DNA of 64,000 nucleotides, taken from Parcubacteria group bacterium Gr01-1014_8 (lineage in GTDB: Bacteria > Patescibacteriota > Minisyncoccia > Phycocordibacterales > UBA2100). Every line of letters begins with the position of its first letter. The stretch's first letter is position 1. The notes beneath the pieces were generated by a model that was given only the letters and a program-made list of their open reading frames with translations, was not told where the DNA came from and did no database searches. The stretch lies in the NCBI GenBank assembly GCA_007376385.1, contig VMGC01000002.1, positions 32,001 to 96,000 on the forward strand. The letters are read 5' to 3'. Positions 1,677 through 57,815 of the stretch are shown here, in pieces. A program made the position numbers and the translations under genes.

Positions 1677-2051
1677 ATGCGGCCGTTCCTTGAAAGGAAA
1701 GATCCGGTTCGACTTTTGCGGCGGCGGCTCCTCATAGTTTGTCTTCTTCTGCTGATCGCGGTCACGGTGCGAGGTGTCTGGGGAGTCTATAAAAAAGAAC
1801 ACGAATCAAGAGTGCTTCGGGATGAAGCGGAGATACAATTGGCAGACCTTCGAGCACGCGAAGCTTCATTGCGGGGAGATATTTCCAAGCTTAAGAGTGA
1901 TAGAGGAATGGAGGAAGTGCTTAGAGAAGAATATGAACTTGCGAAGCATGGCGAGGGGCTTATCGTCATAGTAGAGCCAAATGCCTCCCTTCCGGATGAG
2001 AAATCTCGAACAATGGAATGGTTGCACAGGGCTCTGCCGTGGTGGTATTGA
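1677..2051 (+). CDS. Septum formation initiator family protein (FtsB/DivIC-like)
   Basis: N-terminal TM helix then a coiled coil (LRDEAEIQLADLRAREASLRGDISKLKSD). Confidence 0.65.
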   Translation: MRPFLERKDPVRLLRRRLLIVCLLLLIAVTVRGVWGVYKKEHESRVLRDEAEIQLADLRAREASLRGDISKLKSDRGMEEVLREEYELAKHGEGLIVIVEPNASLPDEKSRTMEWLHRALPWWY

Positions 2052-2066
2052 GGACGCTCGATGACC

Positions 2067-2149
2067 ATACTTCTTTCGGGCACGTGATTTTCCTGCTAGA
2101 AAATCACTCAAATCCTCGCCCGTCGGCTGCGGGGTCCCTCCAGAAGTAT
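2067..2149 (+). repeat. Conserved structured element downstream of a gene, copy 1 of 3 (outer stem ATACTTCT/AGAAGTAT, CCGGGCAC-like box CGGGCAC, inner hairpin, then CTGCGGGGTCCC box)
   Basis: Alignable with copies at 26511-26626 and 57700-57783; both stems covary between copies. Confidence 0.7.
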
Positions 2150-2306
2150 GGCCACGCTCGCTTAGAGTAGTCAATGCAAAAAAAGTCTTACATTTGGCGG
2201 CAAAACAACTTATAGTTACATCAGTAAGCTCTGGATTAGTATAGAAGTTAAGGAATCCGTTTTGCGGGCGTAGTTTAGTGGCTCTGTTTTGGATTGCGGC
2301 CGGTGT

Positions 2307-2968: not shown

Positions 2969-3196
2969 ATGAAAAAGCATCTATTGAAGTGTTGGTTGTG
3001 GAAAGCATTGTGGGCGCTCAGCGTGATTGCGTTCGTGCTTGCGTGGGTGAGCGTGATCCGGCGCGCACCGATAGGTCAGTTTGATCCGCTGTTCTTGTTC
3101 TGGAATGCGCTTATTCTCGGAGTTCTTGCAGTTCCAATAAAGTTAGATTGTCAGACATGTGAGACATGCACGGTGCCCGCTCCTCGGCAGATGTGA
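2969..3196 (+). CDS. Hypothetical small membrane protein
   Basis: ORF with two hydrophobic segments; no recognisable motif. Confidence 0.4.
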   Translation: MKKHLLKCWLWKALWALSVIAFVLAWVSVIRRAPIGQFDPLFLFWNALILGVLAVPIKLDCQTCETCTVPAPRQM

Positions 3197-25792: not shown

Positions 25793-25912
25793 TAAAGGTT
25801 CCTCATTGAACCTATGTTGACTCCTCGCTCCGAAGTGAACATGCGTACATGCCCGCTTCCCTCGCAACGCTCGTCAATGAAAGGGTCTTCTTGTCTAGAG
25901 CGAGGGAGTGAT

Positions 25913-26020
25913 ATACCCCGTGAGATATGTATAAAAAAGGCATCTTAACTAGCTGATTATTCATTTGAATTTATAGATTGTGATGAGAAATTTGGAGTGT
26001 ACCTATCTCATGGGGTATAC
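25913..26020 (+). promoter_or_regulatory. Inverted box pair ATACCCCGTGAGATA ... TATCTCATGGGGTATAC around a 76-nt spacer, about 25 nt upstream of the 26045 start
   Basis: Family member; arms pair G:U as RNA. Confidence 0.55.
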
Positions 26021-26044
26021 TTCTCACGACAGGCGCTTGTAACC

Positions 26045-26503
26045 ATGAAGTCGATAATTTCGATCGTAGCAGTGTTGCTGATGGCAGGAGTCGCGTACAT
26101 TATATGGCCGCAGTTCGCGAATGCACCGCAAATAGATGATCCTAGCGCGACAGAACGGGTCTCGGAACAGAAGAATGTACCGGTGGATGAGCAATTTGCA
26201 ACACTTATTACGTACACAGATGGGGGGTATAGCCCGCAAACGGTTTCAATAAAAAAAGGTCAGACAGTCAGGTTCGTTAATAACGCAGAACGCCAGGATA
26301 CATGGCCTGCGTCCGCCATACATCCCACCCATTCGATCTATCCGCAAAAAACGGACAGCGATTGTCTAGGGAGTTCATTCGATCCATGCCACGGATTAAA
26401 GCCGGGAGAGTTCTGGGAGTTTACGTTCAATGAAGTCGGGGAGTGGGGTTTCCATGACCACTTGCATCCGTCGAAGTTCGGGAAGATCCTCGTTACTGAA
26501 TAG
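26045..26503 (+). CDS. Secreted cupredoxin-like small protein (possible copper-binding beta-sandwich)
   Basis: Signal/anchor MKSIISIVAVLLMAGVAYI, then beta-rich region with His/Cys/His/Met-type ligand candidates (HPTHSIYP, CHGLKPGEFWEF, HDHLHP). Confidence 0.4.
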   Translation: MKSIISIVAVLLMAGVAYIIWPQFANAPQIDDPSATERVSEQKNVPVDEQFATLITYTDGGYSPQTVSIKKGQTVRFVNNAERQDTWPASAIHPTHSIYPQKTDSDCLGSSFDPCHGLKPGEFWEFTFNEVGEWGFHDHLHPSKFGKILVTE

Positions 26504-26510
26504 AGAGAGA

Positions 26511-26626
26511 TACTCGGCGGGGGTATGTGTTTTTCCGGGCACCGATCTTTCTTGGAAGAAAGATCCTCGAGTCCTCGGTCGTCACCTGCGGGGTCCCTGC
26601 GAAACACATACCCCCGTGCTCGCCGG
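26511..26626 (+). repeat. Conserved structured element downstream of a gene, copy 2 of 3 (outer stem GGGGGTATGTGTTT/AAACACATACCCCC, CCGGGCAC, inner hairpin GATCTTTCTT/AAGAAAGATC, CTGCGGGGTCCC)
   Basis: See the copies at 2067-2149 and 57700-57783; sits between convergent genes. Confidence 0.7.
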
Positions 26627-26651
26627 AAGCTAGAATGCAAAGATCGAATAC

Positions 26652-27578
26652 CTATTTTTGGGCGTGCAATGTAAGATAGATATCCTCTAGAGCTTTCACG
26701 GCGTCTCCCGCAGCTATGTTATTTTGATGGAAAAGGCCGTCGGTCGAATCGCCAGCTGCCCAAATACCTGGCGTTGAGGTGCGCTGCGTGCGGGGGTCAA
26801 CCTTAATACGCGCCCACTCGTTCAATTCCACAACTCCTTTAGCAAGATCTGTCGACGGCACCATGCCGATCTCCACGAAAATGCCAGCGGCAGGGATCTC
26901 CGATGTTTTTCCCGTTGCCGTGTTCTTAACGACAATGCTTTGCACGAACTGCCCTCCTTTTATTTCAATGGGCGCGGTATTGGTAAGCGCTTTCATATTC
27001 GGATGTTTGAGGACAGCTTCTACCGTCGAGGCATCTGCTTTCGAGAAATCTGGGCCGCGATGCAGCAGCGTGACTGATTTTGCATACGCAAGAAGCTGCG
27101 CTGCCGTCTCGAACCCAGCGTTGCCCCCGCCGACAACGATAGTATCTTGGTCTGCGAAAAGAGGTCCGTCGCATGATGCGCAATACGTGAGCCCTTTATT
27201 CTCGTACTCCTTTGCACCAGGGATCTCGAGTTGTTTTCGAAAGCCGCCTGTTGCGATGAGAATTGCCCGCGTATCGTATGCGCTTTTATTTGTTTTTACT
27301 GAAAAGCCTTTCTCGGTTTTTTCTATTTTTTCAACTCGTTCGCCGATGTGTATATCCAGGCCCTGGCTCGCATACGCCCTCAAGTGGCCTTCGAACGCCT
27401 TCGCGAGGTCTTGCCCTGTTATTTTCTCAGTGCCTATCCAGTTCTGTATCTCATTTGAATCAAAACTCTGTCCTCCTATCTTCTCTGCAACGAGAACTGT
27501 CTTGAGGCGTTTTCTCGCGGCGTATACGCCGGCAGATACTCCTGCTGGCCCGCCTCCGATTATGACTAGATCGTACAT
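26652..27578 (-). CDS. trxB: Thioredoxin-disulfide reductase
   Basis: GGGPAG FAD motif, redox-active CASCDG and the NADPH-binding GGGNAG. Confidence 0.9.
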   Translation of the reverse strand: MYDLVIIGGGPAGVSAGVYAARKRLKTVLVAEKIGGQSFDSNEIQNWIGTEKITGQDLAKAFEGHLRAYASQGLDIHIGERVEKIEKTEKGFSVKTNKSAYDTRAILIATGGFRKQLEIPGAKEYENKGLTYCASCDGPLFADQDTIVVGGGNAGFETAAQLLAYAKSVTLLHRGPDFSKADASTVEAVLKHPNMKALTNTAPIEIKGGQFVQSIVVKNTATGKTSEIPAAGIFVEIGMVPSTDLAKGVVELNEWARIKVDPRTQRTSTPGIWAAGDSTDGLFHQNNIAAGDAVKALEDIYLTLHAQK

Positions 27579-28988: not shown

Positions 28989-29096
28989 GTTGACCCCGTG
29001 AGATAAACATGGTGACGTTCGAGTCGAACATGTGGTTTTGTTGTGGCTCTCAAGCACCGCCTAACAATAAGGAATGGGTTATCTCACGGGGTTGAC
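28989..29096 (+). promoter_or_regulatory. Inverted box pair GTTGACCCCGTGAGATAA ... TTATCTCACGGGGTTGAC (18-nt perfect inverted repeat, 72-nt spacer) in the ftsA-ftsZ intergenic region
   Basis: Family member with extended arms. Confidence 0.55.
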
Positions 29097-32623: not shown

Positions 32624-32759
32624 ATTAGATTTTGTTAGCGAATAAAATGAGCTTAGAAAATCTTATACCCTGTTAAATACGACCTTTCCAAGGTCGTCCA
32701 GCCTCCGGCGGGATTTAACAGGGTTTAGAAAAATATAGTCGCTCATATTCATTCGCTCG

Positions 32760-33416: not shown

Positions 33417-33699
33417 AAAGTGACTTCAGGCGGGTACATCGCGCGCATTCTACTACTTAACAGTAATTGACACCAAGCGGGAGGGGTGTTGTATGTGGAA
33501 AACAATATATTTTTTCTCGCACGGATATTTTTTTGCTAAAAAAGTTCGCTCGGTATTCCTCTCGCTGAACCCGAGCGCATATTTCCGGCGATATGTGCCC
33601 TTATGCTTCAACGCGCAACTCCTCACTTCATTCGGAGACCCAGGCTTGCGCGTTTCCAGAGATTCAGCGAGAGGAATACCCGCTTGAATGAAAAATATT

Positions 33700-33761
33700 T
33701 ATTGGCGAGCGTTGCGAGTGACGCGAAAATGTACTCATTTTCATGTCCGAGCCGGGGAGCC
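33700..33761 (+). repeat. Hairpin/CCGAGC-box family copy D (GCGAGCGTTGCGAG, GAAAATG-N4-CATTTTC, ATGTCCGAGCCGGGGAGCC)
   Basis: Family member between lepB and pth. Confidence 0.5.
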
Positions 33762-33940
33762 AAAACAGGGTCGAGTGCCCTTTATCTGCTATGATGTTTC
33801 GTTATGACCCGGTAGTAGAATTTCGGCTTGTCTTGTCTAAATCGAATAACACAATTAATCTATATATTCAAAGATGACCCTATGACGTTTTTACGACCAC
33901 GACCTGCGCGTCGCGCCAGCCGAAATTCCACTAACCGGGT

Positions 33941-34534
33941 ATGACATGGGTGATCGTTGGCCTCGGAAATCCAGGAGAGGAGTATGAGCATACTCGCCAC
34001 AACACCGGCAGAATGGCTGTCCAGCACTTTGTGCGCTCAAAAAAGATAGGTGAGTGGAAAGAAGATGCAAAAGCGAAGTCGCTTGTCGCGCGAGGCATGG
34101 TTGAACGCTCGCTCGCCGCGTTCGTGTTGCCTGAAACGTTCATGAACAAGTCGGGAGGCGCGCTCACGAAATTCGTAAAGAGCATGAAAGCAGCAGAAAA
34201 TCTCGTTGTGGTCTACGATGAGCTTGATCTGCCTCTTGGAGCGATGAAAATTTCGTATGACCGTGGTAGCGGTGGACACAAAGGCATTGAATCCATCATG
34301 CGTGCAGTCAAAACGAAAAAATTCTGGCGCATTCGCATCGGTGTTTCGCAGTCTACGGCTGGAGGAGAGATAAAAAAACCTCACGGCGGCAAAGCGGTGA
34401 ACGATTTTATACTTGATATATTCAAACCGCACGAACACGCGGTTCTAAAGACCGTATTCAAGCGCGTCGAGAACGCACTCGAAAGTATCATCGTCGACGG
34501 ACCTGAGAGAGCGATGAATCAGTTCAATTCATAA
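33941..34534 (+). CDS. pth: Peptidyl-tRNA hydrolase
   Basis: MTWVIVGLGNPGEEYEHTRHNTG canonical N-terminus. Confidence 0.9.
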   Translation: MTWVIVGLGNPGEEYEHTRHNTGRMAVQHFVRSKKIGEWKEDAKAKSLVARGMVERSLAAFVLPETFMNKSGGALTKFVKSMKAAENLVVVYDELDLPLGAMKISYDRGSGGHKGIESIMRAVKTKKFWRIRIGVSQSTAGGEIKKPHGGKAVNDFILDIFKPHEHAVLKTVFKRVENALESIIVDGPERAMNQFNS

Positions 34535-52317: not shown

Positions 52318-52351
52318 AGGGAGTTCGTGATGCCATACGAATTGGGCGAGT

Positions 52352-52455
52352 ATACCCCATGAGATAAAAAACTCATAGCCCAGTGATATAGGGTATTTGT
52401 CAAATCAAAATTCGTCGCGCAAAAAGTGTCAAGCGATCTATCTCACGGGGTATAC
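52352..52455 (+). promoter_or_regulatory. Inverted box pair ATACCCCATGAGATA ... TATCTCACGGGGTATAC (72-nt spacer) between divergent infB and the cysteine desulfurase gene
   Basis: Family member. Confidence 0.55.
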
Positions 52456-52533
52456 GCCCAAAAGTCAAAATTTGAAAGTCAGCGGCGCGTGCAGTCACTT
52501 CCGAAATTAAGTATTTAAGCCTAGAATCACGGC

Positions 52534-57680: not shown

Positions 57681-57699
57681 AAAGGGTCGCTCGAAGGTA

Positions 57700-57783
57700 G
57701 TGCTTCCTCCGGGCACGGATTTTTCTTACTAGAAAAATCCTCAAAATCCTCGGTCGTCACCTGCGGGGTCCCCCCAGAAGCAC
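57700..57783 (+). repeat. Conserved structured element downstream of a gene, copy 3 of 3 (outer stem GTGCTTC/GAAGCAC, CCGGGCAC, inner hairpin GGATTTTTCTT/AAGAAAAATCC, CTGCGGGGTCCC)
   Basis: See the copies at 2067-2149 and 26511-26626; sits between convergent clpB and 57816..58667. Confidence 0.7.
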
Positions 57784-57815
57784 AACCTCACTCGCTGGAG
57801 ACGGGGGAGCGTTCG

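Follow-up and report, generated by a model that had tools for sequence, protein, structure and literature searches.

A 64-kb stretch of DNA from Parcubacteria group bacterium Gr01-1014_8, referred to below as the window, contains a cupredoxin-like gene and a convergent trxB gene separated by a 148-nt gap. This gap is filled by a structured element (copy 2, positions 26513-26622, + strand) belonging to a family of intergenic repeats that is new as a family. Members are 90–130 nt long and share a covarying, branched fold, and the family is lineage-restricted, being known to date from no more than a few groundwater Parcubacteria. The reading preferred here, with a probability of about 45%, is that of structure-maintaining intergenic repeats of the REP/BIME, ERIC and hairpin-MITE (miniature inverted-repeat transposable element) kind, confined to Kaiserbacteria-like Parcubacteria. 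It is based on the patchy presence of the element at syntenic sites, on solo, truncated and nested copies, on direct repeats of CTCG type and on a balance of G-U and A-C pairs in the helices.

Structure and covariation of the element

Read from the sequence of window 26510-26630, the order of segments in copy 2 is ATACTCGG-CGGGGGTATGTGTTTTT-CCGGGCAC-[hairpin]-CTCGAGT-CCTCGGTCGTCACCTGCGGGG-TCCCTGCG-AAACACATACCCCCG-TGCTCGCCGG, and the sequences quoted in a preliminary description of this locus lie where that description had placed them. The parts, with the basis of assignment in brackets (MFE, minimum free energy), are:

26513-26516, + strand: 5' flanking CTCG motif, direct-repeat partner of 26619-26622 (sequence)
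26517-26533, + strand: 5' strand of the outer helix P1, partner 26601-26617 (MFE and consensus structure)
26537-26542, + strand: 5' strand of P2, GGG(C)AC, partner GU-CCC at 26593-26597 (consensus structure)
26544-26565, + strand: P3 hairpin, 9-bp A/U-rich stem with the 4-nt loop UGGA (UGCU in most copies)
26566-26572, + strand: J3/4 junction CUCGAGU, with an internal CUCG
26573-26592, + strand: P4 hairpin, CCU-C-GGU[CGUC]ACC-UGC-GGG (consensus structure)
26593-26597, + strand: 3' strand of P2
26601-26617, + strand: 3' strand of P1 (MFE and consensus structure)
26619-26622, + strand: 3' flanking CTCG motif (sequence)

In the MFE structure P1 comprises 17 pairs (G26517-U26533 with G26601-U26617), namely 15 contiguous Watson-Crick pairs and a G-U wobble at either end, and it closes a branched, 65-nt three-way junction formed by P2, P3 and P4. 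An extension by CGG/CCG (26515-17 with 26623-25) is optional and requires a bulge of 5-6 nt. The outer stem of about 18 bp initially proposed is therefore a fair estimate, being 17 pairs by MFE and more with the bulged extension, and the stem is indeed longer than that of copy 1. Copy 2 is more stable than shuffled sequence on both strands, with z = -3.3 (+ strand) and -3.8 (- strand) as RNA, where none of 200 shuffles folds as well, and z = -4.3 and -4.5 as DNA.

The window holds three close copies, one diverged copy and one remnant within its 64 kb, the close copies being 24-31 kb apart and scattered among housekeeping genes. Besides copy 2 these are:

2064-2151, + strand: copy 1 (c1), 12 nt past the stop codon of a DivIC-like gene and upstream of tRNA-Gly
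57696-57787, + strand: copy 3 (c3), absent from the preliminary description, 15 nt past the clpB stop codon and convergent with a 283-aa gene
33552-33680, + strand: diverged copy 4, sharing the three-way junction, its outer helix a perfect 18 bp and its flanks CGCTCG / CGCTTG
33509-33548, + strand: remnant, left by an older copy and consisting of TTTTTTCTCG-CAC-P3 hairpin (TGCT loop), at a position equivalent to 4402-4492 of the relative L042 (see below)

Copies 1 and 2 had been proposed to be the same element (copy 1 then being placed at 2067-2149), and alignment, consensus structure and covariance model agree on this. According to the consensus folds, copies 1-3 have one order of parts: a variable P1, P2 with GGG(C)AC paired to GU-CCC, an A/U-rich P3 of 9-10 bp with a 4-nt loop, the junction CUC(G/A)A(A/G)U, and P4 of the form CCU-GGY[CGUC]RCC-UGC-GGG. 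Copy 3 was first recovered by a simple motif search, and a covariance model built from the three close copies and scanned over the window recovers exactly those three at E ~1e-25 and no others, copies 1 and 2 scoring 100.7 and 99.8 bits. Diverged copy 4 reaches E = 0.0017 with a broadened model (R2) and E = 4.9e-8 with a further model (R3) whose training alignment contains this same copy. R3 found no additional copies in the window or in the more distant relatives.

The preliminary claim of a covarying structured element is borne out by an alignment of nine sequences, relatives included, in which 28 of 32 pairs show compensatory changes on both sides. The alignment was fitted to the model, which inflates such numbers somewhat, the effect itself being large: 91.8% of the alignment cells pair vs 41-53% when the partners are slid, and the observed values are reached by none of 500 shuffles. 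Compensatory changes occur in all 11 modelled pairs of P1 and in 9 of 10 pairs of P3, while P2 covaries among the relatives, occurring as GGG/CCC, AACC/GGUU, CG.CGC/GCG.CG and GCCGUC/GACGGC. The trinucleotide CUC straight after P3 is invariant. The window copies, L001 and L042c (the last two introduced below) also share a conserved CGUC motif and CUGC bulge. Across genomes, the junction and P4 region differ strongly.

One-sided changes are almost absent, and on the model strand 9 G-U pairs stand against 12 A-C pairs. An RNA under selection on one strand normally shows an excess of G-U, unlike the balance seen here, which is expected if both strands, or the DNA itself, are constrained. For the same reason, and with MFE differences between strands that are small and inconsistent, the data favour neither strand of the element.

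The conservation of the parts follows an unusual pattern. The core (P2-P4) is 70-84% identical among the three close copies of the window (84% for c2-c3) and 91% identical between copy 1 and the copy in a metagenome-assembled genome (MAG) from Hainich groundwater (genome GC 58% against 49.5%). Copy 2 and its positional counterpart in L042 (L042a), on the other hand, share only 39% identity in the core and 77% in the outer helix, a helix that is 27-55% identical among the window's own copies. Judging from these identities, the ends look locus-specific and inherited and the interior looks homogenised within each genome. Variable ends around a conserved interior are the reverse of a classical MITE and also differ from textbook REPs and from orthologous cis-regulatory RNAs. 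Gene conversion limited to the core, re-insertion of the core into existing hairpins, or co-evolution with one trans-acting factor would each fit, the last being the case of REPs and their RAYT (the REP-associated tyrosine transposase). If the reversed pattern holds genome-wide, it would indicate an unusual way of spreading or homogenising a repeat.

Occurrence, flanks and occupancy

DNA of syntenic relatives was obtained via TrxB and ClpB homologues, and the bearers of the element are the Kaiserbacteria-like MAGs L042 (GCA_016217965.1, TrxB identity 75%), L044 and L051. Three diverged copies lie within 21 kb of L042. The copies in L042 and L044 are:

L042a: full copy at the cupredoxin/trxB site, between convergent genes
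L042 4402-4492: L042b, between divergent pth and S26-peptidase genes and followed by U6
L042 7320-7411: L042c, antisense between the co-directional genes ybeY and ftsA
L044 36-105: copy between divergent pth and S26-peptidase genes

L051 has one copy, located between a DoxX-like gene and the cupredoxin gene and hence upstream of the latter rather than downstream, and L044 gives one or two weak, partly decayed matches (E 0.013-0.039). One diverged copy is present in the Hainich groundwater Patescibacteria MAG, sampled as both L001 and L025 with the same sequence. All diverged copies fold into the same three-way junction. No genes common to the Hainich MAG and the window genome were found in the compared DNA, so the 91% core identity cannot be read as horizontal transfer or otherwise. 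In addition, an 89-nt three-way-junction hairpin at L044 15382-15470 (+), with a 9-bp P1, a CCCCC/GGGGG P2 and the order 'AC'-P3-'UC'-P4, has the architecture of the family with other sequence and on the opposite strand. As it matches the model only weakly (E 0.025-0.039), the family may be broader than the model detects.

No copy was found in about 87 kb from more distant relatives. A strict core pattern had one true match (L001) and seven chance matches in high-GC genomes among the GTDB representative genomes, one true match (L025) and 30 chance matches in JGI metagenomes, and no match in viral contigs. Such exact-pattern scans miss diverged copies, and the distribution given here is under-sampled to that extent. 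Rfam 15, applied to the whole window at gathering threshold, returned tRNAs only, and at E <= 10 (26450-26700, L042 4340-4560 and window 2000-2300) gave nothing or chance matches far below gathering. A full-text literature search found no description of such an element in Parcubacteria or the candidate phyla radiation (CPR). Being absent from Rfam, the family would form a new entry for RNA and repeat annotation. CPR/Patescibacteria have very small genomes with short intergenic regions, from which few non-coding elements have been described. The family thus provides a handle on how transcripts end or are processed, given that canonical terminators are not enriched here, on whether mobile non-coding DNA persists in reduced episymbiont genomes, and on a protein that would recognise the conserved junction.

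The ends of the copies are marked by short repeats. In copies 1 and 3 and in the 33.5 kb copy, (CG)CTCG precedes the outer helix by 0-4 nt, and CTCG or TTCG is found within a few nucleotides of both P1 ends in eight of nine copies. The flanks of copy 1 are an exact pair (CGCTCG/CGCTCG), those of copy 3 are CGCTCG/CACTCG, and the remaining pairs in the window are TACTCG/TGCTCG and CGCTCG/CGCTTG. In L051 the flanks are again exact (CTTCG/CTTCG), the 5' motif of L042 and L051 being TTTCTCG or TCTTCG. L042, L044 and L051 have a near-exact 11-mer, ACTCTTTCTCG, in the 5' flank and CYTCGRCGAGT in the 3' flank, and the portions of these flanks farther out form an additional, covarying helix, P0. The flank repeats could have arisen as duplications of a preferred CTCG target site or, as the same CTCG motif is present at all loci, could belong to the element itself.

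Occupancy of individual sites is patchy. The copy 3' of clpB is absent from four relatives with 86-93% ClpB identity, the ybeY-ftsA copy is found in L042 only, and the DoxX-like/cupredoxin copy in L051 only. A comparison of empty and filled sites downstream of clpB in L052 (ClpB 93%) was uninformative, as synteny ends right at the stop codon. At the cupredoxin/trxB site of L051, a 48-nt gap (3106-3153) contains a solo site, AAACTCTTT[CTCG]GCGAGTGTTT, in which the 5' and 3' flank motifs of the family are joined by a single CTCG without the core. At the cupredoxin site of L044 (7710-7808) only the 5' half is kept, as judged by eye. The missing 3' half would adjoin a ParE-toxin/antitoxin cassette at L044 7201-7709, an insertion that separates trxB from the cupredoxin gene. 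At the 33.5 kb locus of the window, the remnant and a complete diverged copy lie beside an internal CTCG.

The same strand of the element is on the G-rich strand in nine of ten copies, regardless of gene orientation, the exception being the weak match at L044 15382-15470. GC skew is above zero in nearly all 4-kb bins of the window, so that the whole window is taken to lie on one replichore; its genes are nevertheless divided about evenly between the strands.

Explanations for the family

Each copy consists of a long P1, sometimes extended by the outer P0, together with P2 and a three-way junction bearing P3 and P4, and can adopt this form as RNA or as single-stranded DNA, on either strand. As a repeat, the element would be non-autonomous, being gained, lost, truncated and nested at intergenic sites containing CTCG, and its copies within a genome would stay alike through re-insertion, gene conversion or a trans-acting partner with which they co-evolve. 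At the locus studied here, transcripts of the cupredoxin-like gene would end with the element and those of trxB with its antisense strand, and the GC-rich stem of 17 pairs could then block 3' exonucleases, be cut by RNase III or stall RNA polymerase. Such an effect, proposed because stable 3' hairpins are known behaviour of REP and Correia elements, would probably make the element a by-product 3'-end element and not a canonical terminator.

Several observations weigh against this interpretation. No near-identical pairs of copies were seen, the best paralogue core identity being 84%, so nothing indicates recent transposition. In contrast to classical MITEs, conservation is lowest in the outer inverted repeat, which would have to serve as the terminal inverted repeat. 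The 5' flank CGCTCG, found unchanged at three loci of the window, could belong to the element rather than represent a target-site duplication, and the solo site could equally arise by deletion between repeats. Among the genes of the window, several small open reading frames of which have no Pfam match, there is no transposase, HUH/RAYT protein, integrase or reverse transcriptase, and the annotated loci likewise yielded no transposase. Lastly, the long-term retention of the cupredoxin/trxB site with compensatory change would also fit a function in RNA selected by the host, as would the preferred position and orientation of the copies, for which the statistics are based on 7-8 independent sites.

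Such a function is the main rival explanation and, while somewhat unlikely, is to be taken seriously because of sense orientation, starts after stop codons, lasting occupancy of a site and a conserved stretch containing TTGACA. The element would then be a cis-acting module of the upstream mRNA (3' untranslated region or leader) whose junction, with UGCU, CGUC and CUGC, is bound by a protein or RNase, and which sets the stability or processing of the mRNA 3' end or marks a small regulon (clpB, the cupredoxin gene/trxB, pth and the DivIC-like gene). Six of seven independent sites are sense to a flanking gene, and copies 1-3, L001, L042a and L051 are placed at 3' ends, starting 0-17 nt past a stop codon. 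Three genomes (that of the window, L042 and L044) have kept an element at the cupredoxin/trxB site, with pairs changing in a compensatory way from one to another, and loop and junction nucleotides are conserved where helices covary, as in functional RNAs. In three genomes the copy in the pth leader has the TTGACA-containing stretch upstream of it, but this stretch may equally be the promoter of the divergent S26-peptidase gene. What speaks against the module is that L042 7320-7411 is antisense to both neighbours, that G-U pairs are not in excess over A-C on the sense strand (9 vs 12), that the core of copy 2 is 39% identical to that of L042a vs 70-84% for paralogues, that truncated, solo and nested copies exist, and that the element is missing from relatives as close as 86-93% in ClpB.

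The reversed conservation pattern, the CTCG junctions and the strand bias have also led us to consider a new kind of modular structured repeat, in which hairpins downstream of genes, each specific to its locus and passed on vertically, receive a genome-specific core (P2-P4, ~65 nt) or have it homogenised. This proposal is speculative and is regarded as unlikely. It would require a structure-guided process acting on single-stranded DNA or templated by RNA, or tight co-evolution with one trans-acting protein, and, if true, would mean that a few mRNAs of reduced CPR genomes (clpB, the cupredoxin gene/trxB, pth and a division gene) are tagged with a common recognition module. Distinctly improbable, in our estimate, is a single-stranded DNA element mobilised by an HUH/Y1 transposase, either an IS200/IS605-derived palindrome-associated transposable element (PATE) or one resembling REP-RAYT, which would insert 3' of CTCG on the lagging-strand template with a second CTCG at its end, P3 and P4 serving as transposase-binding hairpins. 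CTCG at both ends of the element, directly adjoining it on the 5' side, the solo site with a single CTCG, and the nine of ten copies with the same strand on the G-rich strand, corresponding to the lagging-strand template, would agree with this, as would conservation of structure rather than sequence, the lack of an RNA-type strand asymmetry and the stability of both strands as single-stranded DNA. However, no Y1/HUH gene was seen in the ~64 kb of the window or in the loci annotated for the relatives, the ends of IS200/IS605 elements do not pair into a long outer helix, the match at L044 15382-15470 is on the other strand, and an outer helix that differs wholly between copies is unexpected for a unit transposing as a whole.

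Copy 2 had initially been seen as placed to terminate transcription in both directions. Its convergent placement and strong, GC-rich stem, occupying the gap between the two genes, stand, and copies in two relatives (L042b and L051) are followed by runs of U5-6, yet it is very improbable that the element serves the cupredoxin-like gene and trxB as a canonical intrinsic (Rho-independent) terminator in both directions. There is no U tract 3' of the stem of copy 2 on the + strand (GUGCUCGCCGGAAGC) or the - strand (CGCCGAGUAUCUCUC), and copies 1 and 3 likewise lack one. The stem is capped by a 65-nt branched junction vs the 3-8 nt loop of intrinsic terminators. At copy 2, a terminator scan picked up only a weak alternative 7-bp hairpin on the - strand, and terminator-like sites are at chance level in this genome, with 5 vs 3.0, 23 vs 22.1 and 25 vs 21.5 (observed vs shuffled) in three of its regions. 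Four copies are not at 3' ends: L042b, L044b and the 33.5 kb copy of the window (between divergent genes), and L042c (antisense). Due to such divergent and antisense copies, convergent placement is true of copy 2, copy 3 and L042a and not a property of the family. The stem may nevertheless support termination independent of a U tract or form a roadblock to RNA polymerase. An alternative terminator hairpin in copy 3 (57700-57716 with the P3 U run) was rejected, as it is not conserved in copies 1 and 2.

Even less credible are small RNA genes with transcription of their own, or a ligand-sensing riboswitch or self-cleaving ribozyme. The compact three-way junction with some invariant nucleotides, the promoter-like conserved stretch before the copy of the pth region and the U6 that ends L042b are compatible with these, but there is no Rfam match at E <= 10, the junction and P4 region are too variable between genomes for catalytic or ligand-binding cores, most copies abut stop codons and leave no room for a promoter, and promoter-like sites occur at chance level. 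In a comparison by eye, the conserved core motifs of HDV-like, twister, pistol and hammerhead ribozymes are absent, in agreement with Rfam.

Among known systems, the closest parallels to the preferred repeat reading are palindromic intergenic repeats of other bacteria. ERIC/IRU elements of enterobacteria are imperfect palindromes of 127 bp that lie in transcribed intergenic regions in either orientation and have size variants arising from indels with structure kept. The present family is similar as an intergenic imperfect palindrome of ~100-130 nt in several copies, with size variants and a maintained secondary structure, but has no sequence relationship to ERIC, is hosted by Patescibacteria, caps its stem with a three-way junction, and varies most in its outer arms, ERIC ends being conserved. 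REP/BIME and REPIN-RAYT systems likewise consist of short palindromic intergenic repeats, often right after stop codons and between convergent genes, with genome-specific variants, and REPs are 3' hairpins that stabilise the upstream mRNA. They are, however, simple hairpins of 20-40 nt with a 5' GTAG in tens to hundreds of copies, in contrast to the few, branched elements of 90-130 nt without GTAG described here, and no Y1 transposase/RAYT is found among the proteins of the window. Hairpin MITEs (Correia/NEMIS of Neisseria, RUP and BOX of Streptococcus) are also non-coding, ~100-150 nt long, gene-adjacent and co-transcribed, with a long RNA stem formed by inverted-repeat ends and with short flanking direct repeats; Correia stems are RNase III substrates. 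The terminal inverted repeats of MITEs are conserved and their copies near-identical, whereas here the inverted repeat is 27-55% identical and the interior 70-91%.

Other systems are less alike. Rho-independent terminators also have a GC-rich stem at the 3' end, the differences being the missing U tract, the branched 65-nt 'loop' and the copies in 5' regions or antisense. Integron attC sites resemble the family in being defined by fold and not sequence, with a branchable terminal structure of variable length, a position directly 3' of open reading frames and a replication strand bias. The R''/R' consensus (RYYYAAC / GTTRRRY) is absent here, the ends being ACTC.../...GAGT or CTCG/CTCG, and there is no cassette array or nearby integrase. 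IS200/IS605-derived PATEs fit with regard to the CTCG flanks and the G-rich-strand bias (9/10), but not with regard to end-to-end pairing or the lack of TnpA in the data.

Gene context and further repeats in the window

The preliminary placement of copy 2 between convergent genes is correct, as the two gene stops bracket the element:

25997-26503, + strand: cupredoxin-like gene, upstream neighbour, stop at 26503 (PF13473, 27.9 bits)
26652-27578, - strand: TrxB-like FAD oxidoreductase gene, convergent neighbour, stop at 26652 (PF07992, 158.6 bits)

For the cupredoxin-like gene, gene callers chose a later start on the source contigs, giving 140-152 aa. The window's TrxB is 100% identical to a protein from Parcubacteria group bacterium Gr01-1014_8, and its closest relatives carry Kaiserbacteria annotation.

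The remnant and diverged copy 4 are housed in an unusually long gap of 524 nt (33417-33940) between divergent S26-peptidase and pth genes. The first ~90 nt of this gap are ~79% conserved with L042 and L044 (TTGACACCAAG...GGTGTTGT), and a further imperfect inverted repeat of 28 nt (33801-33828 / 33918-33945) lies directly before pth. A hairpin, GA(A/G)AA(T/A)G-TACT-C(A/T)TTTC, followed by TCCGAGCCG(G/A)GGAG, is common to window 33727-33765 and L042 17686-17725, intergenic positions that are unrelated between the two genomes.

Downstream of copy 1, tRNA-Gly(CCC) (2307-2378) lies within a 20-bp inverted repeat (2294-2313 / 2370-2389). In the region 2265-2470 it is flanked by the apparent halves of another tRNA (5' GCGGGCGTAGTTTAGTGG..., ...GGGGTTCGATTCCCCTCGCCCGCA), which has an intact T arm and an acceptor strand that matches. 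An insertion of ~150 nt, itself carrying a tRNA, could have split a tRNA gene here; ARAGORN with intron search makes no call for the split tRNA.

A second family of inverted repeats is present at 9984-10086, 25912-26019, 28993-29092 and 52339-52466, and possibly at 32664-32727. Its arms, TATACCCCRTGAGATA / TATCTCAYGGGGTATA, are 16-28 nt long and 68-72 nt apart. All copies are found shortly before gene starts, including that of the cupredoxin-like gene, and the family could represent a MITE or a structured 5' region.

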